Both the position numbers and the translations under genes were made by a program. Shown here one piece after another: positions 128 through 55,248 of a stretch of DNA of 55,793 bases. The stretch covers positions 1 through 55,793 of the IMG/VR virus record IMGVR_UViG_3300036827_000017. One strand, given 5' to 3'. The notes beneath the pieces are model-generated. The model had not been told where the DNA came from and made no database searches. It worked only from the letters and a program-made list of their open reading frames with translations. The DNA is from a virus. Each line of letters starts with the position of its first letter. The first letter of the stretch is position 1.

Positions 128-397
128 GCTGACCCAAACGGTATCGTCATTGTTTTGGCAAACGATGTCGCCTTTACAGTAGTCGAAGCATATATTCCAG
201 TAACGAGTAATCTGACGCAGGCGTGGACCTATTAAAATAATATCAGCGAACGGCTTGGCAGCCTCGGCACTTGCCTCATCGTCCTCGTCGAATCTTGCCA
301 CAATCTCGATGGGATTGTTCGCAGTCTCACGCACAGAATCGACCATGCGAGCGAAAATTTCCGGACGTTTGCGGGACGGGAGAAGTAGGGAGATCAT
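1..397 (-). CDS. GT-A (family-2-like) glycosyltransferase with C-terminal Zn ribbon, 5' part; continues 55666->55245 (272 aa in total)
   Basis: ATG 397 overlaps stop of 394..1404 (ATGA); N-term ISLLLPSRKRPE beta1-type motif, NNDDT DxD-like; frame is continuous with ORF 55245..55778 through the repeat. Confidence 0.75.
   Translation of the reverse strand, partial: MISLLLPSRKRPEIFARMVDSVRETANNPIEIVARFDEDDEASAEAAKPFADIILIGPRLRQITRYWNICFDYCKGDIVCQNNDDTVWVSKGWDVMVEDAFAAVPDKIMLAHGSDVFGHGSNFGPHAFVSRK
230..242 (+). repeat. 13-bp dyad box TATTAAAATAATA
   Basis: exact; on the coding (-) strand ATT ATT TTA ATA = IILI, aa 53-56 of the junction-spanning GT. Confidence 0.9.
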
Positions 398-1404
398 CGC
401 CAATGCCCCTGGTGAAACACGGCCATCGCGCGCACCGCAGCCTCTTCGTAAGTCGGACGCACCGCCTCAACCGAGAATGACGCCTTGCCAATCTCGCGGC
501 TGCGAACGCTGCATCTTTGTGCAAACTCCATGTCCACAAAGCATTGCTTAATGAATCGACATACAGTTTCAAAGTTATCTGTGCATATGCCATTCAAGTT
601 GATGTAATCCTTATATGAAAGTCCTTCCTCGTCCCGCGCCACCACGGGCATTCCTGCGGCAACCGCTTCGGTAAACGAAGTACACAGCGGGCGCGCTCCG
701 CTGCGGTCAAGGTTCACAAACACACGATACTCGCTGCACATCTCGGCCATTTGCTTCGAGGTCTTGAAGTCTAGTGCGCCGTCGTGGTGGTGCATCTTCC
801 CCGGAAACCGTTCGCAGAGTTTTTCCCATATATCCACTCCGCATACCGTCTTGTCGGCAGGGCGCCAGATGTCCTTGCCCGCCAAAACGAATAGTGCTTC
901 CTCGCGCACTCCCGTCCACGGTCGCTCGAACCACCAGTCACCTACTGGCACAGCAGCAGTGTTCACATCGGGCAACGCAGTACGCCACGCATTCAAGTGC
1001 GAAGGCATCCCGAGCAGGACTGGGAAGTTTTCTATTTTCTTGAGGTAGTGATGGGGAAGGTAGGCCGGAGAGTCGTACCAGCAGACGAACACGATGATGG
1101 GACACTCGATGCGGGTACAGTGCTCGCGCCACGATGCAGCGTAGTTGAATGTTTCGACCGATTCGATCAGCAGATCGAACTTCGAGAAGTCGCATTCGCT
1201 GTAGGGCTTTTCCTCGAAATGAATGTCGAGGCCGAGTTCCTTCCACTCCGCGATGCGTCCGTTAGCCTTGGCGAGCGGCAGGATGCGCTTGTCCCATTTG
1301 TAGAGATCGTCGCAGGGCGGGCCGATGACGGTGAGGCCGGGAAAGATTGCAGCCATCTTTTCTACCAGTGCTCCGACTGTCGGGTACAAAAGAGCTGCCT
1401 TCAT
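394..1404 (-). CDS. GT-B (family-4-like) glycosyltransferase
   Basis: 336-aa ORF; C-terminal TSFTEAVAAGMPVVARDEEGL resembles the EX7E region of GT4 enzymes. Confidence 0.7.
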   Translation of the reverse strand: MKAALLYPTVGALVEKMAAIFPGLTVIGPPCDDLYKWDKRILPLAKANGRIAEWKELGLDIHFEEKPYSECDFSKFDLLIESVETFNYAASWREHCTRIECPIIVFVCWYDSPAYLPHHYLKKIENFPVLLGMPSHLNAWRTALPDVNTAAVPVGDWWFERPWTGVREEALFVLAGKDIWRPADKTVCGVDIWEKLCERFPGKMHHHDGALDFKTSKQMAEMCSEYRVFVNLDRSGARPLCTSFTEAVAAGMPVVARDEEGLSYKDYINLNGICTDNFETVCRFIKQCFVDMEFAQRCSVRSREIGKASFSVEAVRPTYEEAAVRAMAVFHQGHWR

Positions 1405-1550
1405 TGTGCGATTTTCTCAAATGTTCGCTTGACTGCCGGAACAGTTAGTTTGCTGATGCAAACCCCGCACAACTGAACGCCTCGGGCACGGATTACGCCT
1501 GCGTGCTCACGACAGTTGGAACAGGTTCCGATAAATGTCCGCTTGCTCAT
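1401..1550 (-). CDS. small Zn-ribbon protein (49 aa)
   Basis: start moved to ATG 1550 (ATGA overlap with stop of 1547..2287); CSNC...CGVC. Confidence 0.5.
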   Translation of the reverse strand: MSKRTFIGTCSNCREHAGVIRARGVQLCGVCISKLTVPAVKRTFEKIAQ

Positions 1551-2287
1551 GTTGTCACCTCGGGTAGTTGAAACTGGGCGAGTCCCCAATTCTCATCGTT
1601 CTTCATTCCGATAAACTTGGGCATGTCGCTGGAATGGATTCCGGTTCGCACCTTGTGCTCGCTGCGGTCGTGCTCTTGGTGGATGATCGGAATCGGTAGC
1701 TTCACATCATTAAGACCCGCTTTGTCCGCGTTCCAAAATAGCAGCGAATCAATGTGCGTGTAGCTCACCAGATCGAAATATCCTCGAAGTTGATGCCAGC
1801 GATTCGCGTGCATGAGTACAAAGTCTCCGGGTCCATCACAGACTTGTACCAGTCGTTCACCGTCCATGTCGTACCGTAGTGCCCGATAAAAACAGTTGTG
1901 ATCAAGCGGACCATTCATAAGACGTTGCCGCATTTCTTCGCTCAAGATGATGTCCGAGTTCAAGCATAGAATTAAATTCCCTGTCGCCCTGCGAATCCCC
2001 ACGTTCTTTGCGCGATACTCGAATACTGGGAATAATTCGTGGCCGGGTAGCGAGCGGTGAACTTCCGGGTACACGGTAATAACGCGCACGCCGCGATGTC
2101 GAATCTCGGTGTTGATGCGCGGGCGGTCGCCGAGCGGATTCCACTCGACGAAGATCACTTCGGCACCGAGCGGCATGATGCTTTCCAGAGAGCGGTTCAG
2201 GCGACCTACGAAGTCGCCGCCGTAGGTGTCATTGCGGCCTATTAAAATAATAGAGAGTCTCAACGGGCAAACTTTCGTTTGGCCCAC
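1547..2287 (-). CDS. GT-A (family-2-like) glycosyltransferase
   Basis: LSIILIGRNDTYGG, VEWNP, LNSDIIL blocks; start is either ATG 2287 or TTG 2263 (TTGA overlap with upstream stop). Confidence 0.65.
   Translation of the reverse strand: MGQTKVCPLRLSIILIGRNDTYGGDFVGRLNRSLESIMPLGAEVIFVEWNPLGDRPRINTEIRHRGVRVITVYPEVHRSLPGHELFPVFEYRAKNVGIRRATGNLILCLNSDIILSEEMRQRLMNGPLDHNCFYRALRYDMDGERLVQVCDGPGDFVLMHANRWHQLRGYFDLVSYTHIDSLLFWNADKAGLNDVKLPIPIIHQEHDRSEHKVRTGIHSSDMPKFIGMKNDENWGLAQFQLPEVTT
2240..2252 (+). repeat. 13-bp dyad box
   Basis: exact; encodes SIILIG at the N-terminus of GT 1547..2287, 8-20 nt past the upstream stop. Confidence 0.9.
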
Positions 2288-2700
2288 CTACCGCGATAAT
2301 TAGGATTTTGTGGCCAAAGTCTAGCAAGATGCCATCTACGAAGGGATACTTGGCAAACATCGAATTTTTTAGCCCAGTCCTGTAAAATTAGACTTTCATT
2401 CCCGATGGTGATCCAAATATTTTTCCTCATATGACGGTTCTGTTCCACCGGAGTGCTCCATTTACAGTTCTCAAGTTTATAGCCAAGTTCGTTATGAACG
2501 CGATCTAGTGTCTTTCCCTCTGGCTTATTCCCCATGTCCGCAAGAAAATTCTCGAATTTAAGCCATCGAGTACAAACCGTAATTCCTCTTCCTCCGTAGT
2601 TCTTATACTCGGGATTTCTTGGGTTCAAACACCTCTGCTTCATAGATTTCCAGCAATTGTGCGTTGGACTATAGCTGTACCCGTGCCGATAACCGCTCAT
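2260..2700 (-). CDS. homing-endonuclease-like DNA-binding protein (YGGRGI module), paralogue of 10849..11349
   Basis: WKSMKQRCLNPRNPEYKNYGGRGITVC ... LDRVHNELGYKLENCKWSTPVEQN; tail looks like a degenerate HNH_3/AP2-type motif; family name uncertain. Confidence 0.5.
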   Translation of the reverse strand: MSGYRHGYSYSPTHNCWKSMKQRCLNPRNPEYKNYGGRGITVCTRWLKFENFLADMGNKPEGKTLDRVHNELGYKLENCKWSTPVEQNRHMRKNIWITIGNESLILQDWAKKFDVCQVSLRRWHLARLWPQNPNYRGRWAKRKFAR

Positions 2701-4055
2701 CGGTTCACTGGTCGGAGCGAGATATTCTCAGTAACCCAATCGTGAAGCATGTTCCTAGCTTCATGTAATTCCATTTTCGTCATTGTTGGTATTTCGAGAG
2801 TACAGGTGTCGGGATTTTCTGGGTCTAATTCCCACATATCAGAGAAGTTACTAGCAGTAATTGTAACCCCAAACTTTTCAGGAGTGTTCCATACCTCACA
2901 CCCAGGAAATGGCTGGAAAGTGTGCAAACTCGCAGCGTCGGGCATACAATCTTCAAGCCACACCCGCATCTCCTCGATGGACTCCCAAGTTTCTCCGGGG
3001 AAACCGATTAACAGATAGGCGCGCGCGGATATGCCCGCATCTTGGCAGAGCTTCACCCCTTTGGTATTCGCCTCGGGCGTCGTGCCCTTGTTCATGGCCT
3101 TCAGCATTCGACGCGAGCCGTGCTCCACGCCAAATCCCATTTCGGTGCAGCCTAGGGCAGCGAGGTCTTTGAATAACTGAGGGTCCATCAAGTTCACGCG
3201 ACTCCAGCCGCGCCACAACATTCCGTAGTCGTGGAAGAGTGCCGCAAGTTCTCGGCAACGCTTGGCTTTGATCGTGAGCACATCATCCCAAACGCGGAGC
3301 GCCGTCACTCCGATTTCGGCAAGGGCTTTAACTTCCGCTTCGATTTGGTCGAAGGTTTCTTCACGGAGCTTCGTCCTTGCATCTGCGCAGAACGAGCAGC
3401 CGTAAGGACATCCGCGCGCGGTCCAAAGAGAGCCGATAGTACGTTCAGCGGCATCAATAGAATGTCCATGTACTGAGGCAATTTGTAATCCTCCCTTCGA
3501 GTAATTTCCCCATAGATCGTAAGCCGGAGTTTTCATCTTCGTCACATCCGGCAGTGGTGGCGAAGGAAGGTGCTGCATCCCGAGCGGCCCGAACCAAGCC
3601 ACGCCAGCAACCTTGGTAACATCCTCTCCCCGGTCCCACCGATTGCAAAACTCGACGAACGATTCCTCACACTCCCCCGTCATCAGGAAATCGAAGCCCT
3701 CGAAATACTTCTTCTGCTTAAAATGCGCGTGCGGACCTTCGATGATGTAGGTCACATGCGGCCCTCCGGCTACTTTCACTTTTGCCGGCCACGCCGCGGC
3801 GAGCTGCCCGCCAAACTCCGCGTTGGGGGTGACGATCGACACGCCTAGGATGTCGCAGGGTTCCATGTCCTTGGGTCGGACGAAAAGTTTGTTGGTTTCG
3901 GGATCGAACGTGGAAATTTTGTGGCAGTCGATAATTTTGACTTCGTGGCCCGCTTCGCGCAGGGCAGATGCTAAATAAAGTAGACCGAGGCTCGCGTGCA
4001 AACTCGGGTTGAACAAGGCAAAACTTGGCCCGCCAGCGAGGATCACTTTAGCCAT
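2697..4055 (-). CDS. B12-binding-domain radical SAM enzyme
   Basis: start moved to ATG 4055 (AGGAG 8 nt upstream); MAKVILAGG...HEVKIIDCH N-terminal domain; RGCPYGCSFC = CxxxCxxC cluster. Confidence 0.8.
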   Translation of the reverse strand: MAKVILAGGPSFALFNPSLHASLGLLYLASALREAGHEVKIIDCHKISTFDPETNKLFVRPKDMEPCDILGVSIVTPNAEFGGQLAAAWPAKVKVAGGPHVTYIIEGPHAHFKQKKYFEGFDFLMTGECEESFVEFCNRWDRGEDVTKVAGVAWFGPLGMQHLPSPPLPDVTKMKTPAYDLWGNYSKGGLQIASVHGHSIDAAERTIGSLWTARGCPYGCSFCADARTKLREETFDQIEAEVKALAEIGVTALRVWDDVLTIKAKRCRELAALFHDYGMLWRGWSRVNLMDPQLFKDLAALGCTEMGFGVEHGSRRMLKAMNKGTTPEANTKGVKLCQDAGISARAYLLIGFPGETWESIEEMRVWLEDCMPDAASLHTFQPFPGCEVWNTPEKFGVTITASNFSDMWELDPENPDTCTLEIPTMTKMELHEARNMLHDWVTENISLRPVNR

Positions 4056-4206
4056 TGTGGGACTCCTGAATTGATTTAAAAAGTTTTTCCTCGGCTTCTT
4101 CTTCCTCCTTTTCGATTCTACGAAGCTCAAGAACAAATCTTTCTATATCACGTTGTCGCAGCTTGATTGCTTCTCTTAGAGCCTGCTTTATCGTGTCATT
4201 CATCAT
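4048..4206 (-). CDS. small charged coiled-coil protein (52 aa), not in ORF track
   Basis: own translation MMNDTIKQALREAIKLRQRDIERFVLELRRIEKEEEEAEEKLFKSIQESHNG; its TAA overlaps the start region of the radical SAM gene. Confidence 0.4.
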   Translation of the reverse strand: MMNDTIKQALREAIKLRQRDIERFVLELRRIEKEEEEAEEKLFKSIQESHNG

Positions 4207-4233
4207 GGACAAAATCATTTGTCACCACCAAGT

Positions 4234-5265
4234 TTAGCCAATCCTCTTACACGCTTCTGCCCACAGCCGCATCCGGCGCGCCGTGTTCTTGAAAAACTGT
4301 GCGTCCTGCGATTCGATTAAATCCGCGAGCGACAAATACGCTTCGCCGAACGAACTGCCCGTCAGTTTATGCTCAACCAGTTTCGGAAGCAATTCTTCCA
4401 TGAGCCTGATCCCGAAAATTTCCTTCTCCGCGTCGGCCAGATAGTTATGCGAGTTCCGGCGATGCGTCGCCACGGGAGTTCCGAACCGCGCCGTCAATCC
4501 TAAATGCTTCGCGCACTTCAATGCGAAGTACCCTTGAAAAATATCCCCGTAGCGGTCAATCGGCGCTTCCATGCACACAAAATAATACGCGGCCATCGCG
4601 TCCCGCCGCACCGCCGTATTCTGCGAATTAATCGGGCACCAGGTATCGGGAGCCAGCACCGCGCTGCCCGTACACCGCGCCACCTGTCCGGGCCGCTGTA
4701 GCCACGTCAGAGCATCCACATCTGGAGCGCCCGTCCACATCCCCGCATTGATGACCACTTCCCCATCTTCCGAGTATTGCGTATGAACCTTGAACGATCG
4801 GCGCGCGTAGTACGGAAACCCGCGGGCGAAGATCTCCGGCCCCATGATTTTCAGCAGATTGCAGTTGTTGTACCAGCCATCCTCGGTGCTCACCAGTGGG
4901 TTATGCTTCCCGAGCGCCGCGATATGCGCCCCGATGAAGTCCTCGTTTAGTGGGCAGAAATTGTCATCGTCGATCGACACAATCATCTCGGCGCCTTCGG
5001 CCAGCGCCATCAGGTAGCCGATGTTGCGGCGATTGTCGGAGTTGAGGGGAATTTCTTCGAAGGGGAATCCTAGTTTTTCAAGAAACCTGACCTGCTCTCC
5101 AAGGTCGGGAATAGCGACGCATTTAGGCACCTTAAAGTTCGGCGTCTTCACGTCCGATATTAAAATAATACTGACTTCGCGTCCGTACTTGGCAAGATTG
5201 GCGAGGTACCCCTTCAGCAGTTCCGTGCAGTCGTTGATCGAGGTCAAAACAATCGCGGCCTTCAC
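4234..5265 (-). CDS. GT75 / reversibly-glycosylated-polypeptide-like protein (glycosyltransferase or UDP-arabinopyranose-mutase-like)
   Basis: GTG start; SIDDDNF, RGFPYYARR, GMWTGAPDVDALTW, PINSQNTAVRR blocks recalled from the RGP family. Confidence 0.55.
   Translation of the reverse strand: MKAAIVLTSINDCTELLKGYLANLAKYGREVSIILISDVKTPNFKVPKCVAIPDLGEQVRFLEKLGFPFEEIPLNSDNRRNIGYLMALAEGAEMIVSIDDDNFCPLNEDFIGAHIAALGKHNPLVSTEDGWYNNCNLLKIMGPEIFARGFPYYARRSFKVHTQYSEDGEVVINAGMWTGAPDVDALTWLQRPGQVARCTGSAVLAPDTWCPINSQNTAVRRDAMAAYYFVCMEAPIDRYGDIFQGYFALKCAKHLGLTARFGTPVATHRRNSHNYLADAEKEIFGIRLMEELLPKLVEHKLTGSSFGEAYLSLADLIESQDAQFFKNTARRMRLWAEACKRIG
5158..5170 (+). repeat. 13-bp dyad box
   Basis: exact; encodes IILI, aa 33-36 of 4234..5265. 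Confidence 0.9.
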
Positions 5266-5275: not shown

Positions 5276-5617
5276 TCATTCGACGATCTTCGCTTTCCCT
5301 CCACACATCCCGCAGTAATACCCTTTCTCGGCCCCGTGGATGCAGGTCGGTTTATCACCGTTACCGGCTCTTTTGCCAGCAGGCTCCCGCTTTCTAGTTC
5401 TAGCAGGCTTCCGTCCGCTAACCGCTGGTATCGCCGCACCCCGAGGCACGTCCACTGCTCCACGATCTGTACTTTCTCCATCTTTCCCCTCCAGTACCCT
5501 GTCTCGACACCACTGGCTGATATTCCCACCAGCCTGCGACTGTATCCACTCAAAGTCCGCTTGGCTCACGCTGAACGATAACTGCTTCCGCTCATCAAAC
5601 TGTAGTGGTCTTCCCAT
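5276..5617 (-). CDS. ribbon-helix-helix regulator with C-terminal Cys cluster
   Basis: start taken at ATG 5617 (M13 of track ORF); KQLSFSVSQADFEWIQSQAGGNISQWCRDRVLEG fits beta-alpha-alpha; CIHG...CGMCGG tail; palindrome directly upstream. Confidence 0.6.
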   Translation of the reverse strand: MGRPLQFDERKQLSFSVSQADFEWIQSQAGGNISQWCRDRVLEGKDGESTDRGAVDVPRGAAIPAVSGRKPARTRKREPAGKRAGNGDKPTCIHGAEKGYYCGMCGGKAKIVE

Positions 5618-5620
5618 CGC

Positions 5621-5643
5621 ACAGTAAATACATTTTATACTGT
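5621..5643. promoter_or_regulatory. 23-bp imperfect palindrome ACAGTAAATAC-A-TTTTATACTGT (operator candidate)
   Basis: starts 4 nt upstream of the RHH gene start 5617; a third ACAGTA at 5664..5669 and AGTAAATACATT repeated at 5675..5686. Confidence 0.5.
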
Positions 5644-5857
5644 TTAATGTCAAGTGAATTCGTACAGTATATTTAGTAAATACATTCTCAGTCTACTTGG
5701 GCATGTTTTGCCGCTGATTTCTACAAGGGTCTAGTGGAAGCGATCTTCCACGAACCCGCATAAACAGGCCGGGGGCTTGCCAATTCGGTCAAAGGGTACC
5801 CGCGAACGTGGCCGGCAGAGCCGCGGCCAGGTGCTCGCCAATCGCTTGCCGTTCGTG

Positions 5858-6695: not shown

Positions 6696-7373
6696 ATGAG
6701 CACACAATCCATGTTCCCGAATCAGCAGCCCGCGAATCAGTCGATGGCGTTCGAGTTCCCGAAACCACTGGCCGAGAAGTATCGACCGTCCACCATTCCC
6801 GAGTTTATCGGGCTCGACAAGGTGAAGAAGATACTCGCGGCATTCGCCACGCGGCCCACTGTTAGCGCATGGGTGTTTGTCGGTCCGCCGGGCACGGGTA
6901 AAACTTCAATGGCGCAAGCATTGTGCGCGGCGATCGCCGGCGAGTTCCACCATATTCCGAGTCAACGATGTACCGCGCAAGCAATAGACGAAGTAACGCG
7001 CATGTGCTGGTACTGTCCGCAAGGTGGCGGTTTCCACGTGGTTTGCGTTGATGAGTTTGACAGAATGACCGATGGAGCGCAGCTCGCGCTATTGTCGAAA
7101 TTGGACAGCACGGCGGCGCCACCGCAAACGATCTGGATCTTCACGGGTAATGGCACCGATGGCATGGAAAAACGATTCCTGTCTAGGTGTCGCGTGCTCG
7201 AATTTTCAAGCTACGGGATGCGCGAAGCACTCGCGGAATTGCTTGCGCGTGTGTGGACGGTCGAAGCGAAGCCAACGTCTGAAGCGCCGGATTTTACCCG
7301 AATCGCCAAAGATGCCACGAACAACGTCAGGACCGCTCTTATGGCCCTAGAATTGGAGCTGCTTGCACAATGA
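6696..7373 (+). CDS. clamp-loader (RFC/DnaX/gp44)-like AAA+ ATPase
   Basis: EKYRP box, GPPGTGKTS Walker A, VVCVDEFD Walker B, SRCRVLEF sensor-1 type motif. Confidence 0.75.
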   Translation: MSTQSMFPNQQPANQSMAFEFPKPLAEKYRPSTIPEFIGLDKVKKILAAFATRPTVSAWVFVGPPGTGKTSMAQALCAAIAGEFHHIPSQRCTAQAIDEVTRMCWYCPQGGGFHVVCVDEFDRMTDGAQLALLSKLDSTAAPPQTIWIFTGNGTDGMEKRFLSRCRVLEFSSYGMREALAELLARVWTVEAKPTSEAPDFTRIAKDATNNVRTALMALELELLAQ

Positions 7374-7657
7374 GCGACATCAAAAAACACGATATTCGGG
7401 ACTCGATTAAGGCTATTGCGCTAGACATCGGAAAAGAAGTAGCCCATCACATTGAAATCATGTATCCCGAGGCGGTTACGGCTACATCTTCGACATTCCT
7501 TTTGTCGGTGAGAAACACAACGTATAACAAGATAATGTTTGCCCTTGATCCAAAAAATGAACACGACGTAGCCGAATCTTTGAAACGTCACGACAAGGAT
7601 CGGCGAGAATTACGCGCTATCTATAAGAGAATCCGCCGAAAGAAGATCGTGCAGTAG
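7370..7657 (+). CDS. hypothetical protein (95 aa)
   Basis: ATGA overlap with upstream stop. Confidence 0.6.
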   Translation: MSDIKKHDIRDSIKAIALDIGKEVAHHIEIMYPEAVTATSSTFLLSVRNTTYNKIMFALDPKNEHDVAESLKRHDKDRRELRAIYKRIRRKKIVQ

Positions 7658-7661: not shown

Positions 7662-7674
7662 TATTATTTTAATA
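7662..7674 (-). repeat. 13-bp dyad box (plus strand reads TATTATTTTAATA)
   Basis: exact; intergenic, 4 nt after stop 7657, 17 nt before ATG 7692 with GAGGAG between. Confidence 0.9.
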
Positions 7675-7691: not shown

Positions 7692-7793
7692 ATGAAACCA
7701 ATAACCAATTTTGAAATCGTTTTCTTCCTTACCGCGACTGCGACATGGACACTGGCTCTCTGCCGCATTTTCGCGCACTTGCTAGGAGCGTAA
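7692..7793 (+). CDS. small hydrophobic protein (33 aa), not in ORF track
   Basis: own translation MKPITNFEIVFFLTATATWTLALCRIFAHLLGA; GAGGAG 9 nt upstream; follows a dyad box. Confidence 0.4.
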   Translation: MKPITNFEIVFFLTATATWTLALCRIFAHLLGA

Positions 7794-8529: not shown

Positions 8530-8773
8530 CCCGCTTCTCGAAATATTCCCTCGTCTTGCGCGACTTTACCGTGCGCTCTTGCCTCAGAATTGCTTTACGG
8601 TGTTGTTTGAGCCTCACGATGATCTCAATCGCGTCGTAGAATGCCCGTTCTTCTTTGACCGTATGCGATTTTAGACGCCTATCGGCCTTCAGCACCCTCC
8701 AGATGGCATGTCCGATGCGAACGAGCCTTAAATAGCTTGCGTCATCTTCGTTGTAATCACACGGGCGGTTCAT
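8501..8773 (-). CDS. hypothetical protein (90 aa)
   Basis: start moved to ATG 8773 (AGGAG 7 nt upstream). Confidence 0.5.
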   Translation of the reverse strand: MNRPCDYNEDDASYLRLVRIGHAIWRVLKADRRLKSHTVKEERAFYDAIEIIVRLKQHRKAILRQERTVKSRKTREYFEKRATSSPQSAG

Positions 8774-8918
8774 TTTTATCTCCTGTCTCGTCGGCGAGCG
8801 TCCGAGCCAGCGACCAAAGGACTCCATCGAGGTTTGTAATCTCTTCCGTCGTCAGGCTGTCGCGCAGGTGCGGCATGATCTTCTGAATCAGCAATTCGTA
8901 AATGGCGTCGCGTTCCAT
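8757..8918 (-). CDS. hypothetical protein (53 aa), not in ORF track
   Basis: own translation MERDAIYELLIQKIMPHLRDSLTTEEITNLDG...; ATG directly follows a dyad box. Confidence 0.45.
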   Translation of the reverse strand: MERDAIYELLIQKIMPHLRDSLTTEEITNLDGVLWSLARTLADETGDKNEPPV

Positions 8919-8931
8919 TATTATTTTAATA
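8919..8931 (-). repeat. 13-bp dyad box
   Basis: exact; in the 22-nt spacer; on the gene strand TATTAAAATAATA is directly followed by ATG 8918. Confidence 0.9.
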
Positions 8932-9359: not shown

Positions 9360-9808
9360 GGCGTCCCCGATCGTTCCATCGTCGTGACGCGCACCCACGT
9401 CTTTGCGCTTGAATCCAGAAACTTACTCACCCACAACTGCGATACTTGGGCATCGTCGCAGTACACAGTGCCAGTCATTGAGTCAAGTAGCGCGCGTGCG
9501 AGTTTATCGAGGTCCGGCTTGGTCAACTTGTGCCGATTCTCCCTGTCCTTTTTCGGCGTAGACTTTGGCCGGGTGAAGTAGAAATGCGCCTCGACGCGCA
9601 CCGCCACCGTGACAGGAAAGCATCCCGGCAGTACCAGATCCCGCATGGCGCGCTCTGCGCACGCGGCTACCTCTTGACGCCACGGCTTGAGTTCTTTGTT
9701 GGTCGTGGTCAAGATCGGGCGCTTCCAGCCCTTCGGCGTGAAGGCCCGCATCGACCCCTGATGCTGGGGCTTGCCGAATACCTCGAACGTGATGATTGTC
9801 GACGTCAC
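9356..9808 (-). CDS. rusA: RusA-family Holliday junction resolvase
   Basis: PDLDKLARALLDSMTGTVYCDDAQV matches the RusA DxDxxxKxxxD...DD pattern. Confidence 0.85.
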   Translation of the reverse strand: MTSTIITFEVFGKPQHQGSMRAFTPKGWKRPILTTTNKELKPWRQEVAACAERAMRDLVLPGCFPVTVAVRVEAHFYFTRPKSTPKKDRENRHKLTKPDLDKLARALLDSMTGTVYCDDAQVSQLWVSKFLDSSAKTWVRVTTMERSGTP

Positions 9809-10089
9809 TCGTCGGCTTCCTTTTCCTTGTGGATTCGAACCTTGACCTTCTCGCCCTCGGGCACCAGCTCGATTTCGATGTCCTCGTACTTGTACGTCTT
9901 TTTGCCAAACTTGTGCATCAGGCTAATAAGCGCCGTCTTGAGTTCGACCTCCTGCTTAGTCATCTCCATGCGCTCATCGCGGCCTTGGGCATAGTCCAGT
10001 GCCGCTTGGTCGAGTTCACCGATCCGACGCGCTTCCATCCCTGGCAAATCCTTCTGCTTGGCCCGTTTTGTCGCTGCCGCTTTCGCCAT
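9805..10089 (-). CDS. hypothetical protein (94 aa)
   Basis: 4-nt overlap with upstream gene. Confidence 0.6.
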   Translation of the reverse strand: MAKAAATKRAKQKDLPGMEARRIGELDQAALDYAQGRDERMEMTKQEVELKTALISLMHKFGKKTYKYEDIEIELVPEGEKVKVRIHKEKEADE

Positions 10090-11960: not shown

Positions 11961-11972
11961 ATTATTTTAATA
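11960..11972 (-). repeat. 13-bp dyad box
   Basis: exact; on the gene strand TATTAAAATAATATG, last A is the A of start codon 11960. Confidence 0.9.
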
Positions 11973-16871: not shown

Positions 16872-16884
16872 TATTAAAATAATA
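16872..16884 (+). repeat. 13-bp dyad box
   Basis: exact; in the 345-nt non-coding gap, 2 nt from hairpin arm 16887. Confidence 0.9.
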
Positions 16885-19423: not shown

Positions 19424-19496
19424 TTTATTCTCCTTGCCAGCGCACAATATACACTGCGCATTTAATTGTCAAGAGAAATCGGAGGGATAAGTATAC

Positions 19497-47526: not shown

Positions 47527-47539
47527 TATTAAAATAATA
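47527..47539 (+). repeat. 13-bp dyad box
   Basis: exact; non-coding, about 50 nt upstream (gene strand) of ATG 47474. Confidence 0.9.
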
Positions 47540-47610
47540 CTCAGCGTCCCCTCAGAACGCTTACTTCCGTTTCGAGTGACGGCCCCTGCGTCGTGCCATA
47601 GTCGGTGTCT

Positions 47611-48050: not shown

Positions 48051-48230
48051 TCAGTTTATGCGTTCAGGAAGTAAAATGCGCCAGCGGCGGTTCGGATCGC
48101 GCATTACGCGGCATCCCACGCGCACCAGAGTCCCGCTTTTACACCAGTTTCTAATAGTTTGCGTCGTGGTCTGATAATACCGCGCTGCATCTCCCACTCG
48201 CACCCATTGGCCTTGTGTGGTTGCGGTCAT
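48051..48230 (-). CDS. MerR/excisionase-type HTH protein (59 aa), not in ORF track
   Basis: ATGA overlap with portal stop; WVRVGDAARYYQTTTQTIRNWCKSGTL. Confidence 0.55.
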   Translation of the reverse strand: MTATTQGQWVRVGDAARYYQTTTQTIRNWCKSGTLVRVGCRVMRDPNRRWRILLPERIN

Positions 48231-49966
48231 CGGGGCTTTTTCAGTTTCGAGAGTGCGGCAAGGGCTTGCGCCTGCTCCGCGTCCTTCGCCAGTTGCTCGG
48301 CGTTCGGGATTCCCATCGTCTCGAAGATAAACTTCGGCGGCAGGGCACCCGTCTTGGAAAGAGCCATAACGAGGTTCTTCATCATCGAACTAGACACAGC
48401 TTGTAAACTCACATCGTCGAGTTCAATGTCGCACTCCGCGCCATCGGGAATCGGTAGCCACGAACACGCTTTCTGCTGACCGCGGGACGGCTTGAGCAAA
48501 TCCTCTGTCCGCTTGAACCTTGCCATCGTGTAGAAAACCATGCGCGCGAGGCGCTGATACTGTTCGGCCAGCATCCTCGCCTTCATGCGCACGAACGTCT
48601 GTCCCTGAAAGACAGCCGCATCGAATAACTCCGGTGAAATGTTACCCCCGCCCGACTGTCCTTGTCGCTCCGGCGTGGTCCCTGAATACCGTGCCACTTT
48701 TTGCAGCAGCAACTCGGGAATCTGCGTCATGTGCTGCGGAATCTGCGGCGGCGATGACATCGTAGGCGGCTTGTCGCCATCGTACACCTGCACTTCTCCG
48801 GGTAGCCCGCCGTAGGCGTCGACGTCGATGCCGGAATCCTTCGGTATCCAGCACTGCACGTTGTTCGTGCGAATCATGTTTTCAATCAGTTGCGTGTACA
48901 TGCGCTCCGCAATATCCTGCGGAGATTTGACATATCGGATCGGAGGCGGTCCATACAGACTATCCAGATGAGGCATAGACCAAATCCCAATAAACGGAAA
49001 AGTTCCAAAATCATCTTCGGGCAGACGTGGAATAAAGTTCGGGCCGTCCGCCAGAATGATGCCGTTGCACTCGACGATGAACCTGCCATTCGGGAATCTC
49101 CACTTGTGTTTTGGCGCAACGACTAACTCGAAGCCTGTGGCCGTCTTTTCGCCGGCAATCTCTTTGATCGTTTCTCGCGCATAATCCTTGATCCATGCAT
49201 AACGAACACGAACGCGGGGACCGTTACGGCGGTGTTCAAAACCTTCCGGAGCGTCAAGTCTAAGTGGTCCTGGAGGGAGTTCCATGCTGAGATCGAATCT
49301 TGATCCTTCTGCCTCGTTTTCTTCGTAGTCGTCATAGCCACCGCCAATCTTCACGTACTTCCCGCGCTCGGGGAACATCCTTCGCACTTCGTCCACGTAG
49401 AAATACCGCTCGCTGACTACGAAAGACCAATCACGGTCATTTTTTGCATGGGGATCAGGAAAGACGGTCGATGGATCGACGGCATTGAGCCAGACCATGC
49501 CTTTACCGTTTCGGGCATCGGGTGCGTAACCCATTTGCAGCCAAGAGGGATTGACGAACTGCGCCCACAGTACCGCATCGAAAATTCGATTATTAAACAT
49601 CCCAAGTCGCCACGCGGCGTTGAACGCTTTCTCTCTTTGCTCATCAGATTTCCCATCCACGGAAATGTAAGTTTTTGGCGTGTCGTTGGTCAGGTCCGTC
49701 GCTTCGCAGCACATCAGGAATTGCGCTTCGGGGAGAATCACCCGCGGTCGGAAGGAAGGCGTTGCGGTCGAGGGATAATAGTTGAGGTTGTAGTACCCAA
49801 TCATTTCCTCGACGTGGTTAGTTCCCTGTTTCTGTTCGCGCTCCGTGCGGGACATCCGTTGCAACTCGTCAAGCTGGCGGGCAATCCGCTTCATGTTGGG
49901 ATCAACGAGTTCGCTCTTGCGCTCGGTGTTCACCATGAAGGGCGCGGGTACGAAAGTTATGCTCAT
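48227..49966 (-). CDS. portal protein candidate (579 aa)
   Basis: size and position downstream of the large terminase; no signature verified. Confidence 0.65.
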   Translation of the reverse strand: MSITFVPAPFMVNTERKSELVDPNMKRIARQLDELQRMSRTEREQKQGTNHVEEMIGYYNLNYYPSTATPSFRPRVILPEAQFLMCCEATDLTNDTPKTYISVDGKSDEQREKAFNAAWRLGMFNNRIFDAVLWAQFVNPSWLQMGYAPDARNGKGMVWLNAVDPSTVFPDPHAKNDRDWSFVVSERYFYVDEVRRMFPERGKYVKIGGGYDDYEENEAEGSRFDLSMELPPGPLRLDAPEGFEHRRNGPRVRVRYAWIKDYARETIKEIAGEKTATGFELVVAPKHKWRFPNGRFIVECNGIILADGPNFIPRLPEDDFGTFPFIGIWSMPHLDSLYGPPPIRYVKSPQDIAERMYTQLIENMIRTNNVQCWIPKDSGIDVDAYGGLPGEVQVYDGDKPPTMSSPPQIPQHMTQIPELLLQKVARYSGTTPERQGQSGGGNISPELFDAAVFQGQTFVRMKARMLAEQYQRLARMVFYTMARFKRTEDLLKPSRGQQKACSWLPIPDGAECDIELDDVSLQAVSSSMMKNLVMALSKTGALPPKFIFETMGIPNAEQLAKDAEQAQALAALSKLKKPR

Positions 49967-50562: not shown

Positions 50563-50976
50563 TTACGCCTCCGGTTGGCGTCGCTTCAATTCGTCGGAAA
50601 GCATGGCAGCAATCCTGCGTTTTTGCAATTTCTTTTCCATGTCAGCGAGTTTGTCGTTGTCCAGTGTCGAACCCGAGGGCCGCACAGTCGCCTCTGGCTC
50701 AGCCTGTTTGCGGATCGGGTCGGCGGTAATCACTTCCTTGGTCGGCTGCGCTTCTGGAATCGCTTTGAAAACTTCGCCAAACGATCCGAGGTGTGTGCGC
50801 AAAACCAATTCTTGCGATCGGCTATCCCAGTCTTTAAGCAATGTCACTGGCTGGTCGATCACATCGATGAGATCACCGCGAATGCGGATTTCACCGCCAG
50901 CTTGACGGCAGAGCGCGGCAATGATCTTTACCAGGTACGATTCGAGGCTTGCGTTTCCGCGTGAATACGCAGGCAT
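50563..50976 (-). CDS. hypothetical protein (137 aa)
   Basis: GGAGG 7 nt before ATG; dyad box fills the spacer upstream. Confidence 0.6.
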   Translation of the reverse strand: MPAYSRGNASLESYLVKIIAALCRQAGGEIRIRGDLIDVIDQPVTLLKDWDSRSQELVLRTHLGSFGEVFKAIPEAQPTKEVITADPIRKQAEPEATVRPSGSTLDNDKLADMEKKLQKRRIAAMLSDELKRRQPEA

Positions 50977-50989: not shown

Positions 50990-51002
50990 TATTATTTTAA
51001 TA
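50990..51002 (-). repeat. 13-bp dyad box
   Basis: exact; abuts the terL stop (51003); on the gene strand followed by ATGGAGGCACAAA-ATG(50976). Confidence 0.9.
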
Positions 51003-52802
51003 CTAGATTCCAGCGAGACGGTCTATCTTCCGACGCCCTGAACCTTTCATAAAACCGAGAGAATCCCGCCGCAGTCCCGAGCGCGTCATGGTCTGAAACA
51101 TTTCTTGCCGTAGGAATCCCGAAATTTCTTCCTTGATCGGCAAACCATCCAGCATCGCACGGGGATTCTCCGGGTCCATCGTGTTCTTCGGTGCGAACTT
51201 CATACGCGCAGGAGGATACTGCTCTCGCGTCAAACACGCAATCATCCACGCTACGGCGATGTCGTCGTGGTCCCGCAGAACTTCCCATCGCCATTCCTTG
51301 ATCGTCATCAGCGACAATTGGCTCATCAGCGCACGATCGTGAATACGCAGTGCTCCCGGCTCTTGCTTGATGCCCATGCGAATCCCGTGGCGCGCGGCGT
51401 CCACAATCAGTCGGCGTGTTGCTTGGTTCATCTCGAATCCCAAGGCAATACTTCGGCTCTTACCGCGCTTCCGATCGTCCCGGCCCTTCCATGCGTAAAT
51501 CTTCGGGTAGCGGTATTTATCTCGCAAAATAATAAGCGCCCAGCGCCCGAGGTTCCCGGTTAGCTCAATGTTCAGCATTGCGGTGCTAAAGAATCTTCCG
51601 CACATATCCAGTTGGTCGGCCAGAACTTCCGGTGCGATGCGCTCGGCAAACCGTGCTGCCAACTCTCCAGTTTCCCCGCAGATGCAGACATAGGCCGCGA
51701 AGTCGCCTTCCTCGGTTCCGAGTGCCGCGTCCGCGCCCACATAGTAGTGCAGTCCGTCAGGCTTCTTTCGTTCATCGTAGGGAAACTTCCATAGGAACAC
51801 TGGACCCATGTCATCGCGCACGAATTTGTACCCCGGTGCTACAGGCGTGCGCTCGAACTTCCCTCGACATAGCGGGTCTTTGATCGTCGATTCGGCGTAG
51901 GCCAGCTCCTCACGGGGGAACGCAGGGAAGCCCGACACCTGAAAAGCAACCTCGGGACAGTGCGGAAAATCTTGCAGCCACTTCACTTCCTGTCCGCGGC
52001 AGTCGTCTGACTTGGTTCTCCGCATCCACGCAATTTGCTCGCGCGTAGCGTTGAATGGCGGGAGCATCAGTTCTTTTTCGAGGTCGTCTTTCGGGGCATC
52101 TCCGGCTTCTTCTTCAGGACGACGACACTGCGGGTCATTGAGCCATCCAAGGAAAATCGGGATGTACCCGTTTCTGCCGGCGACGGCGTTCTCCCAATAC
52201 TCTGCGAATGCTTCCCCCGGCCCTTCGCGGCCATTCGCCGTGGACTCGATCACGATGATGCTGCCTTCGCCCTTGCTGACCGAGGAGATCATCGAGGTAA
52301 ACGATTCGTCCGAAGGATAGAACGCAGCTTCGGAAAGGTGCAGGGCAGACAGAGTGCCGCCACGTCCAGCAGACGGTGTGCCCGCCGTCGCCATCGTCAT
52401 CTGACTGTCCCCATCAGGATGCCGGAACAGCAAGCGTTTCTGCTGAATATCTTCGAGAGGAAAGCCGGGAAATGCCCGCGCGAGGTCCGAAGGCACACGA
52501 AACAGTTCTTCCGCCGACCCTGCGAGGTGCGCCACGATCTTTGTGTTCATGTGCGGGAAGGCCAGAGCGAATGCCCACATCATCGCATCGGTCTGCGCGG
52601 AGACTCCTACACGGCGGGATTTGAGGTCGATGATTCGGATGATCTTCTGCGTGCGCCATTGCTCACAGATCATGCGCCAGCGAAGTTCCTGATTGGGATT
52701 GAAAATAAACGGGGCCATGCGCTGCGTTGAAATATGTCTGACAGGTAGGCGAGTGAAGAGTTGGCGGGAGCGGTCGAGCCAGGTTTGTTCTGGCGCTTTC
52801 AC
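51003..52802 (-). CDS. terL: terminase large subunit
   Basis: DLKSRRVGVSAQ Walker-A-like, ALHLSEAAF Walker B, VIESTANG coupling motif; 599 aa. Confidence 0.9.
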   Translation of the reverse strand: MKAPEQTWLDRSRQLFTRLPVRHISTQRMAPFIFNPNQELRWRMICEQWRTQKIIRIIDLKSRRVGVSAQTDAMMWAFALAFPHMNTKIVAHLAGSAEELFRVPSDLARAFPGFPLEDIQQKRLLFRHPDGDSQMTMATAGTPSAGRGGTLSALHLSEAAFYPSDESFTSMISSVSKGEGSIIVIESTANGREGPGEAFAEYWENAVAGRNGYIPIFLGWLNDPQCRRPEEEAGDAPKDDLEKELMLPPFNATREQIAWMRRTKSDDCRGQEVKWLQDFPHCPEVAFQVSGFPAFPREELAYAESTIKDPLCRGKFERTPVAPGYKFVRDDMGPVFLWKFPYDERKKPDGLHYYVGADAALGTEEGDFAAYVCICGETGELAARFAERIAPEVLADQLDMCGRFFSTAMLNIELTGNLGRWALIILRDKYRYPKIYAWKGRDDRKRGKSRSIALGFEMNQATRRLIVDAARHGIRMGIKQEPGALRIHDRALMSQLSLMTIKEWRWEVLRDHDDIAVAWMIACLTREQYPPARMKFAPKNTMDPENPRAMLDGLPIKEEISGFLRQEMFQTMTRSGLRRDSLGFMKGSGRRKIDRLAGI

Positions 52803-53630: not shown

Positions 53631-53652
53631 CGCGGGAAGTGTACTTACATTC

Positions 53653-53883
53653 TTGCATCATTGCAAATCAAAGGACACCTATGTTAGCTTGGGCATCACT
53701 ATGAGAGGAACGCAAACCATCGGCATCTGTGCGATTCACTCGCGGCCCTTCCCGTGTTTAAGTTGTAGGGGCGCTAAAGGTGGCCGGGTATCGAGTCCTG
53801 CGAAGTCGCGGGCTAATAAAGCTAAGAGCCGCCACGCCGCGATGATGCGCTGGCATCGCAAAGAGACGAAGGTATTAAAATAA
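53653..53883 (+). CDS. basic Cys-containing small protein (76 aa; ATG 53701 alternative)
   Basis: its last codons and stop (GTA TTA AAA TAA) lie inside a dyad box. Confidence 0.45.
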   Translation: MHHCKSKDTYVSLGITMRGTQTIGICAIHSRPFPCLSCRGAKGGRVSSPAKSRANKAKSRHAAMMRWHRKETKVLK

Positions 53884-53885
53884 TA
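53873..53885 (+). repeat. 13-bp dyad box
   Basis: exact; TATTAAAATAATATG; contains the upstream stop TAA and the A of start 53885. Confidence 0.9.
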
Positions 53886-54289
53886 TGCCCGGTTTTTGTG
53901 AATCTTGTGTTAGCGGACAGCACGCAGCGTGCAACGATCCTCAGTGTAGGTGCTTGTGCAGACCTGCCGTGCAAGAGTTAATGAAGAAACAACCTCCGCT
54001 ATTTCCTACTACTGGGACAGGAACTCTCGTATGTCCAGAATGCACTCATAAGCCCCGCATCGGAGATACTTTCTGTCGCTTCGATGGCAACAAGCTAATT
54101 CCCGGTAAAATATGCTGTTGCGGGAAGGCAGGCGAACCAGACGACGTGTTCTGCGGCGGCTGCGGCCAGAAGTTTGGAGAACCCGTTGTTCCGATACCGG
54201 AACTGAGTGAGGAAGAGATCACGGCACTGGAAGCCAAAGCTCGTCAGCGACCGTCAGACGTGGAAGCGCCTATCAACGAGGTTCACTAG
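53885..54289 (+). CDS. multi-Zn-ribbon protein (134 aa)
   Basis: CESC...CNDPQCRC, CPEC...C, CCCG...CGGCG; start codon is fused to a dyad box. Confidence 0.6.
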   Translation: MPGFCESCVSGQHAACNDPQCRCLCRPAVQELMKKQPPLFPTTGTGTLVCPECTHKPRIGDTFCRFDGNKLIPGKICCCGKAGEPDDVFCGGCGQKFGEPVVPIPELSEEEITALEAKARQRPSDVEAPINEVH

Positions 54290-54589
54290 ATGGCAACCGT
54301 CAGCAAAAACTTGTACGATCGGCTTATCGCTAACAGGCCATTCAAGCTATCTGCCGAGGAAGTGAGTTACGAGGAAGCTAAAAAGCGTTCCAAGTATTCC
54401 TTTCTACAAAAAGACGATCCTCGCTGTGAGACTTGCATTCACTTCTTCACGCGCAAAGTTGATGGACACAATACCTGTGAAATTTTCAGGCCAGAGGATG
54501 ATGAGTCTGTCGAGCCAGAATACGTTTGTGATTTCCATAGCATTGATGGGAAAGAGTTCCCGCTATATTGCTATGACCTAGAGGACTAA
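54290..54589 (+). CDS. hypothetical protein (99 aa)
   Basis: abuts the previous stop. Confidence 0.6.
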   Translation: MATVSKNLYDRLIANRPFKLSAEEVSYEEAKKRSKYSFLQKDDPRCETCIHFFTRKVDGHNTCEIFRPEDDESVEPEYVCDFHSIDGKEFPLYCYDLED

Positions 54590-55248
54590 ACCCAAAGGCA
54601 AGACTTCTGAATAGGATGTTCCGCGAACAGAACGCCGCAGCCGTTGCAGTGTGTCCCAATTTCGACCAGCACCGTTGATTCACTTCCACACTTAGGACAG
54701 GGCGCACCCTGATTCTTCTTCGTATTAAAATAATAATGGTACATGACTCGCGGGATGTAGTGCTCCGTCTTGACCTTGCCGCGCATTCGGTCGGACCATC
54801 GCTTGTCCTCGCCGTGCCCGCCTTCCATCGGTTCGAGTAGCGCGAGTTCGCGGCGCATGGAATTTAGATGCGAAATATCCCGGTAGTAGCCGTTTACATC
54901 CTGATACCAGCCATTGAATTGCAGAGAGTGAAAGGTTTTTTCAGATAGCGGGCGTCCGTCGATATAGCATTGAAGCTGGAATCCGATCTGATCCACACCG
55001 TCTAGTAGCGGCAGAATTGTGGACACGTAATCGTCTGGCACCATGTCATCGTCATCGACGAAGTTGATATATTGCGCCCGCGAGGAACGCCTGAGCATAT
55101 CCCTATTTTCTCCGAGGGTATACTGCGGATCGCAGGTGCGAATCAGGATGTTTACTTGATCGTTTCTCTGAGGCTCAAGCACTTTGAGGAGTTCGTGAAT
55201 AAACTTCTGGCGCGTGGACATCGTGAGAATGAGGATGTCCCACGTCAT
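54586..55248 (-). CDS. GT-A (family-2-like) glycosyltransferase with C-terminal Zn ribbon
   Basis: start at ATG 55248 (ATGA overlap); WDILILTMSTR, NFVDDDDMV DxD; C-term CPKCGSESTVLVEIGTHCNGCG. Confidence 0.7.
   Translation of the reverse strand: MTWDILILTMSTRQKFIHELLKVLEPQRNDQVNILIRTCDPQYTLGENRDMLRRSSRAQYINFVDDDDMVPDDYVSTILPLLDGVDQIGFQLQCYIDGRPLSEKTFHSLQFNGWYQDVNGYYRDISHLNSMRRELALLEPMEGGHGEDKRWSDRMRGKVKTEHYIPRVMYHYYFNTKKNQGAPCPKCGSESTVLVEIGTHCNGCGVLFAEHPIQKSCLWV
54723..54735 (+). repeat. 13-bp dyad box
   Basis: exact; coding strand ATG TAC CAT TAT TAT TTT AAT ACG = MYHYYFNT, between the GT domain and Zn ribbon of 54586..55248. Confidence 0.9.

Follow-up and report, generated by a model that had tools for sequence, protein, structure and literature searches.

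Seventeen exact copies of an AT-only 13-bp dyad in an uncultured phage genome: candidate recognition sites for a phage-encoded dimeric protein

We describe a short DNA box, TATTAAAATAATA, that recurs throughout the virus record IMGVR_UViG_3300036827_000017 from the IMG/VR database. The window, meaning the whole stretch of DNA that was analysed, is 55,793 nucleotides (nt) long, and because nucleotides 1–127 recur at 55667–55793 it represents a complete circular or terminally redundant phage genome of 55,666 bp. The box is present in 17 exact copies, 12 on the plus strand and 5 on the minus strand, and its presence is real and all-or-none. The reading that we favour, tentatively, is that a dimeric protein encoded by the phage recognises the boxes as duplex sites and acts across the whole genome, and that the product of a gene here called X is the leading candidate for their reader.

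The box consists of perfect 5-bp inverted arms, TATTA and TAATA, around an A3/T3 centre. A search for TATTA-N(0–8)-TAATA found the 3-bp centre 17 times (AAA 12 times and TTT 5 times on the plus strand), with the arms invariant across all of these copies, and the 2-bp centre once, at 44044. Allowing up to two mismatches added one site only, at 41461 (1 mismatch), and none with two mismatches; the six independent hits with three mismatches are at the chance level of 5.95. The 17 copies listed in a preliminary description of this DNA are all found where it placed them, and 100 dinucleotide-preserving shuffles of the genome yielded no exact box. Our own estimate under a model of independent, identically distributed letters is about 6 × 10^-4 copies, in agreement with the earlier figure of 10^-3 or fewer chance hits, which had assumed a GC content of about 55% judged by eye; the computed value is 0.537. 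Both degenerate copies reported in the 9.9-kb gap of the array are also real, one with a single mismatch (41461) and one with a 2-bp centre (44044). Beyond the 13 bp, almost no conservation was found in the flanks, and no -35-like element.

The array has a density of about one site per 3.3 kb when the 17 exact copies and two variants are counted together. Its spacing, earlier called fairly even, is mildly so: the coefficient of variation of the gaps is 0.64 versus 0.92 for random placement on a 55,666-bp circle (P ~ 0.04), and the smallest gap between boxes is 850 bp (P ~ 0.007). The orientation of the centre has no polarity along the genome. The individual sites, with relatives from IMG/VR cited by handle (L numbers), are as follows.

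230–242 (+): within open reading frame (ORF) 2–346 (−), in the I-I-L-I frame and antisense to the gene; the place reads VAIV in L004 and has other sequence in L003.
2240–2252 (+): about codons 12–16 of ORF 1547–2287 (−), IILI frame; same box at the same place in three other box-bearing genomes.
5158–5170 (+): in the RGP-like glycosyltransferase gene 4234–5265 (−), IILI frame; kept in four other box-bearing genomes, with I-F-L-I encoded by GATTAAGAAGATT in box-free relatives.
7662–7674 (−): intergenic, after gene 7370–7657 (+) and 18 nt upstream of the small ORF 7692–7793.
8919–8931 (−): intergenic, sense, abutting the ATG of the 53-amino-acid protein gene 8757–8918 (−).
11960–11972 (−): overlapping the ATG of the 203-amino-acid protein gene X (TATTAAAATAATATG); same layout in L014, L023 and L024, the 12-bp variant instead in L026 and L027, none in L013.
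16872–16884 (+): intergenic, directly after the GC-rich hairpin 16886–16935 (−), 105 nt upstream of a PAPS-reductase-like gene.
18568–18580 (+): codons 4–7, YYFN frame, of the small membrane-protein ORF 18467–18589 (−).
24163–24175 (+): filling the 13-nt gap between gene 23316–24161 (+) and the lysozyme gene 24175–24594 (+), and overlapping the ATG of the latter.
28283–28295 (+): signal-peptide codons (LIIILIM) of gene 27254–28315 (−); other hydrophobic codons in the box-free L009, L011 and L007.
30982–30994 (+): signal-peptide codons of gene 28324–31008 (−).
33293–33305 (+): signal-peptide codons of gene 31775–33322 (−).
37668–37680 (−): intergenic, sense, between a 936-amino-acid virion-protein gene and the ATG of gene 37272–37667 (−).
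41461–41473 (−): degenerate copy, 12/13 match, TATTAAAATAAGA.
44044–44055 (−): 12-bp variant TATTA-TT-TAATA, in the major head protein gene; L003 has the 12-mer at about the matching place (position 20436).
47527–47539 (+): intergenic, with the tiny ORF 47561–47599 (−) on one side and a conserved stem-loop on the other; the next gene starts 52 nt downstream.
50990–51002 (−): intergenic, right after the stop codon of the large terminase (TerL) gene and upstream of the Shine-Dalgarno (SD) sequence and ATG of gene 50563–50976 (−); a clean 16-nt indel relative to the box-free L004.
53873–53885 (+): overlapping the ATG of gene 53885–54289, which opens the plus-strand block; L004 has an ordinary GGTGGAG SD sequence.
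54723–54735 (+): inside gene 54586–55248 (−), YYFN frame; L004 encodes YYSR with TATTATTCGAGAC and no indel.

Copies of the 12-mer were also counted, with their places unmapped, in L006, L007, L008 and L010; the box-free L004 has none.

We then related the boxes to the genes, which were called by a purpose-made codon-bias ORF caller and not by a standard gene finder. As the preliminary description held, the box occurs in non-coding DNA, in two reading frames and on either strand relative to the local gene. Although the genome is about 92% coding, 9 of the 17 boxes lie between genes or reach into a gene no further than its start codon (binomial P ~ 2 × 10^-6 by our own arithmetic), five lie in the first 35 nt of an ORF and three lie deeper in an ORF; altogether, 12 boxes are no more than 35 nt from a start codon. 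Relative to the local gene, six copies are sense and 11 are antisense (6 versus 3 among the intergenic copies). All six sense copies, in which the mRNA reads UAUUAAAAUAAUA, are intergenic, and five of these have an ATG at offset 0 or -1, so that the box takes the usual SD position. The box contains no G and occurs in both orientations; its start-codon offsets are -1, 0 or 13, and otherwise it is inside a gene. The antisense copies include all eight coding copies, an asymmetry that the sequence itself predicts, since two of the three frames contain stop codons when the box is in the sense orientation. Six of these coding copies read I-I-L-I, three of them lying in the hydrophobic cores of paralogous signal peptides, and two read Y-Y-F-N.

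Selection at these coding sites acts on the nucleotides, with the peptide not the target. Every IILI (6) and every YYFN (2) of the predicted proteome is encoded by a box. Given IILI, the probability of the spelling ATT-ATT-TTA-ATA is 0.0012 per instance under this genome's codon usage, in which 6.9% of Leu codons are TTA and 12% of Ile codons are ATA. Across 34 syntenic comparisons with four to five box-bearing phages, the flanks differ at 773 of 4812 positions (16%), while the box has 0/13 changes in 30 comparisons; the other four mismatch through gap placement or a displaced copy, and exact boxes are present there (L014 5383, L024 3467, L006 8737, L013 17824). Nucleotide-level selection follows from the combination of the rare-codon spelling of the box, its constancy amid 16% flank divergence and the ordinary sequence at the same places in box-free relatives. 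The codon test rules out a peptide motif, and the earlier view of the box as a signal at the level of the nucleic acid stands on all three lines of evidence.

Relatives from IMG/VR fall into two groups, box-bearing and box-free. The first includes 36801_89 and 46662_14, which have at least 12 and at least 14 boxes, respectively, in the contig parts examined, together with several fragments. The box-free group consists of syntenic relatives with 57–86% protein identity (49440_66, 21171_1, 5602_4, 46724_534 and others); these carry zero boxes, and no substitute motif or repeated k-mer was found in them. At the positions of the boxes, the box-free genomes have an ordinary SD sequence, ordinary codons or a clean 16-nt gap. 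Because the coding positions differ without indels, the coding boxes must have arisen by substitution, with amino-acid changes, at tolerant places. A mobile mini-insertion was considered and rejected: one intergenic copy (50990) looks like a clean 16-nt insertion, but the coding copies are substitutions without indels. Sites also turn over among the box-bearing genomes (230 is absent in 46662_14, and 30982 in 36801_89).

The box is specific to one lineage. In a scan of viral contigs for the box plus AT, the matches listed were isolated copies, attributable to chance, in contigs rich in AT (median GC 0.31). Using ERF as an anchor in viral contigs gave nothing informative, nor did a search for the conserved inverted repeats (CIR) of phiC31, and a literature search for the box sequence itself found no match.

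Four genes are present in all box-bearing genomes and were not found in the box-free loci, with the near exception of HNH, for which one box-free contig has a weak 32% match.

11349–11960 (−): gene X, encoding a 203-amino-acid orphan predicted to be all-helical; in every box-bearing contig, not found in box-free relatives.
10527–10910 (−): HNH endonuclease, matching PHROGs HNH families; gene order X-HNH-Y in L023 and L024.
9805–10089 (−): protein Y, 94 amino acids, the third member of the module.
8757–8918 (−): 53-amino-acid protein, which among close relatives was found in no genome lacking the box; its ATG directly adjoins a box.

We find 11 close homologs of X among 5.8 billion proteins. 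All contigs whose X is at least 59% identical carry the 13-mer or its 12-mer variant, including the following.

L023: X 64% identical; 7 exact boxes in 20.6 kb.
L024, with a different replication module: X 88% identical; 4 boxes in 14.1 kb.
L026: X 59% identical; 2 exact boxes and the 12-bp variant at the ATG of X.
L027: X 60% identical; 2 copies of the 12-bp variant.

The box or its variant lies over the start codon of X in six of seven lineages. In contrast, L025 and L038, whose X is 43–44% identical, have no box, though the Y of L038 is 80% identical; likewise, L037 (Y 75%, HNH 49%) has no box in 11.6 kb. By these comparisons, the box is inherited together with the module of X, HNH, Y and the 53-amino-acid protein, and its presence tracks the divergence of X more closely than that of Y. 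Because of its 80% homolog in the box-free L038, Y is unlikely to be a specificity factor. HNH homologs with 49–57% identity are likewise found in contigs without a box (L025, L037 and L038).

Diverged X proteins could have a motif of their own, yet L025, L038 and L041 contain no dispersed dyad, only clustered iterons; three further contigs looked up for diverged X are 1–2 kb long. The iterons are TGCACAAAATGCA, present twice in L038 (1876, 1939), and TCCCAAAAAACG, present four times in L041 (2253–2337), and they lie inside the replication-initiator genes of these distant relatives. They are probably replication origins, unrelated to the box. A different palindrome, CTCCAAATTTGGAGG, is carried by L039 and L040, which share only Y (64% identity) with the window. 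In L039 it is exact at 1827, 2120 and 7625, each 5–9 nt upstream of an ATG with an SD sequence inside the right arm, and has one mismatch at 3893, where there is no adjacent ATG; in L040 it occurs at 78 and 3810, one exact and one mismatched, in the same contexts. The SD sequence of the L039 palindrome could be sequestered in a hairpin.

According to the favoured reading, a sequence-specific and probably homodimeric protein of the phage lineage would recognise the box on double-stranded DNA, occupying the 17 exact and two variant sites. X would be the most likely reader, possibly together with the neighbouring HNH nuclease. The density of about one site per 3.3 kb, never closer than 850 bp, suggests an action on the whole genome, which would be transcription silencing, road-blocking or DNA organisation rather than the switching of one promoter. 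Autoregulation of X would also fit, because a box sits on its own start codon. We infer that a protein binds, that it does so as a dimer, that X is this protein and that binding has such an effect, and we do so because of the dyad form of the box, its strictness, the selection on its nucleotides, its lineage specificity, its co-inheritance with X, its even spacing and the precedent of the Cluster O mycobacteriophages considered below. Of the three candidate roles offered in the preliminary description, a site for a dimeric regulator is the best supported, though still unproven.

The four binders proposed earlier do not follow the distribution of the box. The LuxR/GerE protein at 26885–27244 (Pfam GerE) was not found in the box-bearing 36801_89 and has a 32% homolog in a box-free contig, and the MerR/Xis-like protein at 48051–48230 is 85% identical in a box-free relative. 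The supposed ribbon-helix-helix ORF at 5276–5653 has no family match and has 30% homologs in box-free contigs. The supposed helix-turn-helix protein at 19539–19691 (ORF 19462–19746) has no Pfam match and was found only in L023 among the relatives.

Several observations count against a dimeric reader of this kind, and against X in particular. Shared ancestry confounds the co-inheritance, which was followed in short contigs and in incompletely covered box-free genomes; the genes for HNH, Y and the 53-amino-acid protein match the distribution of the box nearly as closely as X. The association with gene starts can be explained by tolerance alone, in a compact genome with hydrophobic N-terminal segments able to encode IILI. 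A rigid dimer would not easily accommodate the variant with a 2-bp centre, which is nevertheless tolerated, and such all-or-none strictness is commoner in enzymes than in transcription factors. A role in lysogenic silencing has no support, there being no integrase or repressor among the window proteins scanned (40 in the Pfam scan). X itself has no match in Pfam, PHROGs or PDB sequences and no detectable DNA-binding domain. Foldseek with the model of X returned nothing in PDB at E ≤ 0.001, and the DNA-binding domains of Spo0J/ParB match that model weakly (probability 0.30–0.54, template modelling score 0.32–0.46, E > 1). The candidacy of X rests on its pattern of occurrence, not on a recognised DNA-binding domain.

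Further searches characterised X as follows. In NCBIfam, the only match was to a PTPDL family, far below the cut-off (E 0.0027; 16.9 bits versus 200). An exhaustive profile search defined a family of 143 distant cluster representatives, all of about 200–250 amino acids, with no informative Pfam or PDB match and no ParB Pfam hit in 102 members. An alignment of X against metagenome contigs gave nothing informative, a tblastn search against 50,697 phage records gave no hit and a fold search of BFVD gave nothing usable. The AlphaFold model made with a deeper alignment is confident and all-helical, with a predicted local distance difference test (pLDDT) score of 94.9; Spo0J had matched a first model at E 2.4–6, and it matches the pLDDT-94.9 model with a probability of 0.30. 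The notion that X is ParB-like, which arose from a helix-turn-helix-like stretch seen by eye, is unsupported by Pfam, PHROGs and PDB sequence comparison, and the fold matches are weak.

The preliminary description could match the box to nothing known. This is not quite so: an array much like this one is present in the Cluster O mycobacteriophages (PMC4351075). Their repeat, in phages Corndog and Ryadel, is 17 bp long and reads TGTTCGG-NNN-CCGAACA (PMC4351075, PMC6439249). Corndog has 34 copies with invariant arms, of which 14 are intergenic, 10 are at ORF 5′ ends and 11 are within ORFs, mostly not at promoters (PMC4351075), and Ryadel has 31 copies (PMC6439249). Re-counting on AY129335, we found the Corndog centre to be AAA or TTT in 29 of 34 sites. 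The authors of that work inferred a dimeric binding protein with a role other than transcription initiation (PMC4351075). Both systems have invariant inverted arms, a 3-bp centre that is mostly AAA or TTT and almost no degenerate copies; in both, tens of copies occupy a mixture of intergenic, ORF 5′-end and coding sites, the orientation of the centre is unrelated to transcription and the phage is not obviously temperate.

The two arrays differ in their details. The Cluster O arms are 7 bp long and contain GC, whereas those of the box are 5 bp and AT-only; the centre is variable there and invariant here; and the Cluster O copies number more than 30 in a 70-kb genome and crowd towards one of its ends, in contrast to 17 copies evenly spread in 55.7 kb. 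The phages that carry these arrays are unrelated, a siphovirus of Mycobacterium and an uncultured phage with a P22/SU10-like portal. Neither the Cluster O repeat sequence TGTTCGGNNNCCGAACA nor a homologous phage was encountered, the sequence here being different and TerL being at most 25% identical to that of any cultured phage. The resemblance is one of design and not of shared ancestry, and the box differs in sequence, arm length, strictness of the centre and lineage. Here, unlike in Cluster O, a box-free sister clade and a co-inherited module yield a concrete candidate.

A weak lead connects X to Corndog itself. When the X-family profile was compared with the Corndog ORFs, the best hit was gp122 (hidden Markov model E 7 × 10^-4, 14.7 bits; hhalign probability 2.9%). 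In the Corndog record AY129335 (L163), dyad repeats at 68651 and 68780 lie just upstream of gene 122 (68942–69664), whose product has 240 amino acids. It is conceivable, though we regard it as a long shot, that X represents an unrecognised family of phage proteins that read arm-A3/T3-arm dyads and, with HNH, mark or control the genome, and that Cluster O (TGTTCGGTTTCCGAACA, with gp122 as candidate reader) is the same system.

Other dispersed sites share some of these properties. The Cluster A stoperators, which are the sites of L5 gp71, are 13 bp long, number more than 20 and lie in short intergenic spaces and at gene boundaries, where they silence transcription genome-wide (PMC9283540). The box is alike in being 13 bp, dispersed and at gene boundaries, with genome-wide action being a stoperator feature. 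However, stoperators are asymmetric, monomer-bound and strictly oriented and belong to temperate phages with an immunity repressor (PMC9283540), whereas the box is a dyad in mixed orientation, with half of its copies inside genes and with no repressor or integrase among the proteins scanned. The start-associated sequence (SAS) of Cluster K is a 13-bp repeat with 11–19 copies per genome, tied to start codons (mostly ATG) and absent from the host genome (PMC3203893). The box shares with it a well-conserved 13-bp length, a similar copy number and the tie to start codons. In contrast to the SAS, which is asymmetric, contains an SD core, lies 3–7 bp upstream of starts in one orientation and is confined to the non-structural half (PMC3203893), the box is AT-only and lacks an SD sequence, and it occurs in both orientations, inside genes and in all regions of the genome. 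Outside phages, a comparable palindromic site of 13–16 bp, repeated around a replicon as the box is here, is that of KorB/ParB proteins. Plasmid RK2 reportedly has 12 KorB sites. The KorB operator (OB) of this IncP-1 plasmid is a 13-bp palindrome, TTTAGC-S-GCTAAA, spread around a replicon of about 60 kb, and KorB, which regulates globally, can exert its effect far from promoters (PMC2680271, PMC11790492). KorB, however, is a ParB-family CTPase and RK2 is a plasmid; in our phage neither a ParB/Srx domain nor a ParA partner is detectable.

We considered four other explanations for the box. It may be the site of a phage enzyme acting on its own DNA, most plausibly by HNH nicking, perhaps targeted by X, or else by base modification. 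Nucleases and modification enzymes typically show such all-or-none exactness, the HNH gene is co-inherited with the box and adjoins X in all box-bearing contigs, and the genome encodes the recombination functions ERF and RusA. Localised nicks at dispersed, short and near-identical sites are found in T5, the phiKMV-like phages and phage tf, and the copy number and spacing of the box resemble those of tf, with about 14 such sites in about 46 kb at 53% GC (PMC3517423). Known nick motifs, however, are asymmetric and lie on a single strand (PMC3517423), whereas the box is a dyad in both orientations, with its A-tract on the plus strand 12 times and on the minus strand 5 times, and the HNH homologs in L025, L037 and L038 come without it. 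We judge this explanation unlikely. Less probable again is a site for a host protein or process, such as a nucleoid-associated protein or an uptake, Chi or similar signal, with the two clades differing in host. Presence or absence by phage lineage could equally reflect host range, and X has no recognised DNA-binding domain. Xenogeneic silencers prefer AT-only, TpA-rich DNA such as the box in a genome of 54% GC. Yet the sites of nucleoid proteins are degenerate while the box is exact, and Chi-like or polar signals are asymmetric and oriented while the box has no polarity along the genome; nor does a host factor predict that the box and one small set of genes stay tightly together where the replication module differs, as it does between L024 and the window.

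The two remaining explanations would place the box in gene expression. As a promoter core for a phage-specific or modified RNA polymerase, it would be a T4-late-like -10-only element or a bidirectional one, as the preliminary description had also suggested. The box is AT-rich and reads TAAAAT in one direction and TATTAT in the opposite one, one copy lies in a divergent region (53631–53884) and the six sense intergenic copies, 0–13 nt from a start codon, could give leaderless or short-leader transcripts. T7 has a number of phage promoters similar to the 17 boxes. We nevertheless consider a promoter improbable, for the orientations are mixed (6 sense versus 11 antisense), copies lie inside genes, including five that are 9–35 nt inside the coding sequence they would serve, and neither a -35 element nor other flank conservation accompanies them; with TAAAAT as the -10 element, the expected start would, by our reasoning, fall beyond the abutting ATG. 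The best sigma70-type promoters and two of the three divergent regions are without a box. A sigma70 promoter in particular was rejected as a candidate: matches are at or below the shuffle expectation, and the boxes pair only with weak 9/12 matches. The scan of the proteins revealed no phage RNA polymerase, and the only sigma-like hits, to the GerE/LuxR protein at 26885–27244, are weak (Pfam Sigma70_r4_2 E 0.0016, below the cut-off; PHROG 'sigma factor') and concern a protein not in all box-bearing genomes. Least probable in our estimation is a role in the mRNA where translation begins, analogous to that of the Cluster K SAS, in which the box would be an unstructured leader rich in A and U, form a hairpin or be bound by a RegA-like translational repressor. 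In its favour are the 12 copies within 35 nt of a start codon, the five genes in which the box abuts the ATG in the SD position and the SD-containing palindrome that L039 and L040 carry just upstream of ATGs. But the two orientations would produce different RNAs, with an A4 or a U4 centre, and both are conserved; copies 230, 5158 and 54723 lie 95–513 nt inside genes, 16872 and 47527 lie 52–105 nt upstream of the next start, and relatives at site 37668 keep the box while losing the adjacent ATG. An RNA hairpin was rejected, the folding energy of the 13-mer being 0 kcal/mol and ten contexts folding inconsistently; of these ten, only 53853–53905 is more stable than its shuffles (z = -2.46, with 2 of 200 shuffles as stable). 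An intrinsic terminator was rejected as well: it fits only 16872, with the hairpin 16886–16935, and weakly 47527, and the 13-mer itself is unfolded.

Returning to the dimeric reader and its relatives, Cluster O arrays have been known since 2015 without explanation, and the present case adds testable handles: sister phages that have the same genes but no box, selection evident at the nucleotide level and a shortlist of four genes led by X. If confirmed, X would found a new family of sequence-specific DNA-binding proteins, used for genome-wide control or marking in phages of uncultured soil-type bacteria. If HNH acts at the boxes, the system would offer a genetic definition of the long-puzzling localised nicks of phage DNA. 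If X and Cluster O belong together, a decade-old curiosity would become a general mechanism.

The remaining gene content is that of a phage without a cultured relative. Structural genes encode a P22/SU10-type portal (48227–49966), TerL (51003–52802) and a major head protein (43688–44692); recombination and replication genes encode ERF, RusA and an O-like replication initiator; and the lysis gene is the lysozyme gene 24175–24594 (+). The top TerL match among 50,697 phage records has 25% identity, a megablast of the genome against the same records gave nothing informative and an alignment of TerL against 185,579 species genomes found no relative. Strong GGAGG-type ribosome-binding sites precede most genes. 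The two top sigma70-type promoter matches, both on the minus strand, run from 13438 to 13409 (TTGACA-18-TATGAT) and from 19472 to 19444 (TTGACA-17-TATTGT), upstream of replication genes and where the leftward early block begins; from their form, the host may use canonical promoters. At 16886–16935 (−), the hairpin next to box 16872 has a GC-rich 9-bp stem, and the U-rich strand of the box could provide the tail of a terminator that closes the ERF operon.

Two homing-type HNH endonuclease genes, 10849–11349 (−) and 22888–23319 (+) (phrog_374; Pfam HNH_3), are patchy among the relatives, and one of them sits between X and the small HNH gene in this genome only. The phage also carries an unusual accessory set of sulfation and glycan genes at 20348–22891, 15957–16766, 2697–5265 and 25921–27090. 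Its members are a glycosyltransferase-sulfotransferase fusion, an APS kinase, a TylF-like methyltransferase and a PAPS-reductase-like protein, along with a B12 radical SAM enzyme, an RGP-like glycosyltransferase and a malectin-domain protein; the host surface, the virion or DNA could be what they modify. The tiny ORF 47561–47599 (−) encodes MARRRGRHSKRK, which may be a small basic peptide; it has its own SD sequence, is followed by a conserved stem-loop and is kept in L003 and in the box-free L004. Finally, the three neighbouring secreted-protein genes 27254–28315, 28324–31008 and 31775–33322 (−), with a 331-amino-acid ORF (31020–32015) between the second and the third, have paralogous signal peptides of the form M-x-K-R-L...A-Q-Q, and a box lies in the hydrophobic core of each.

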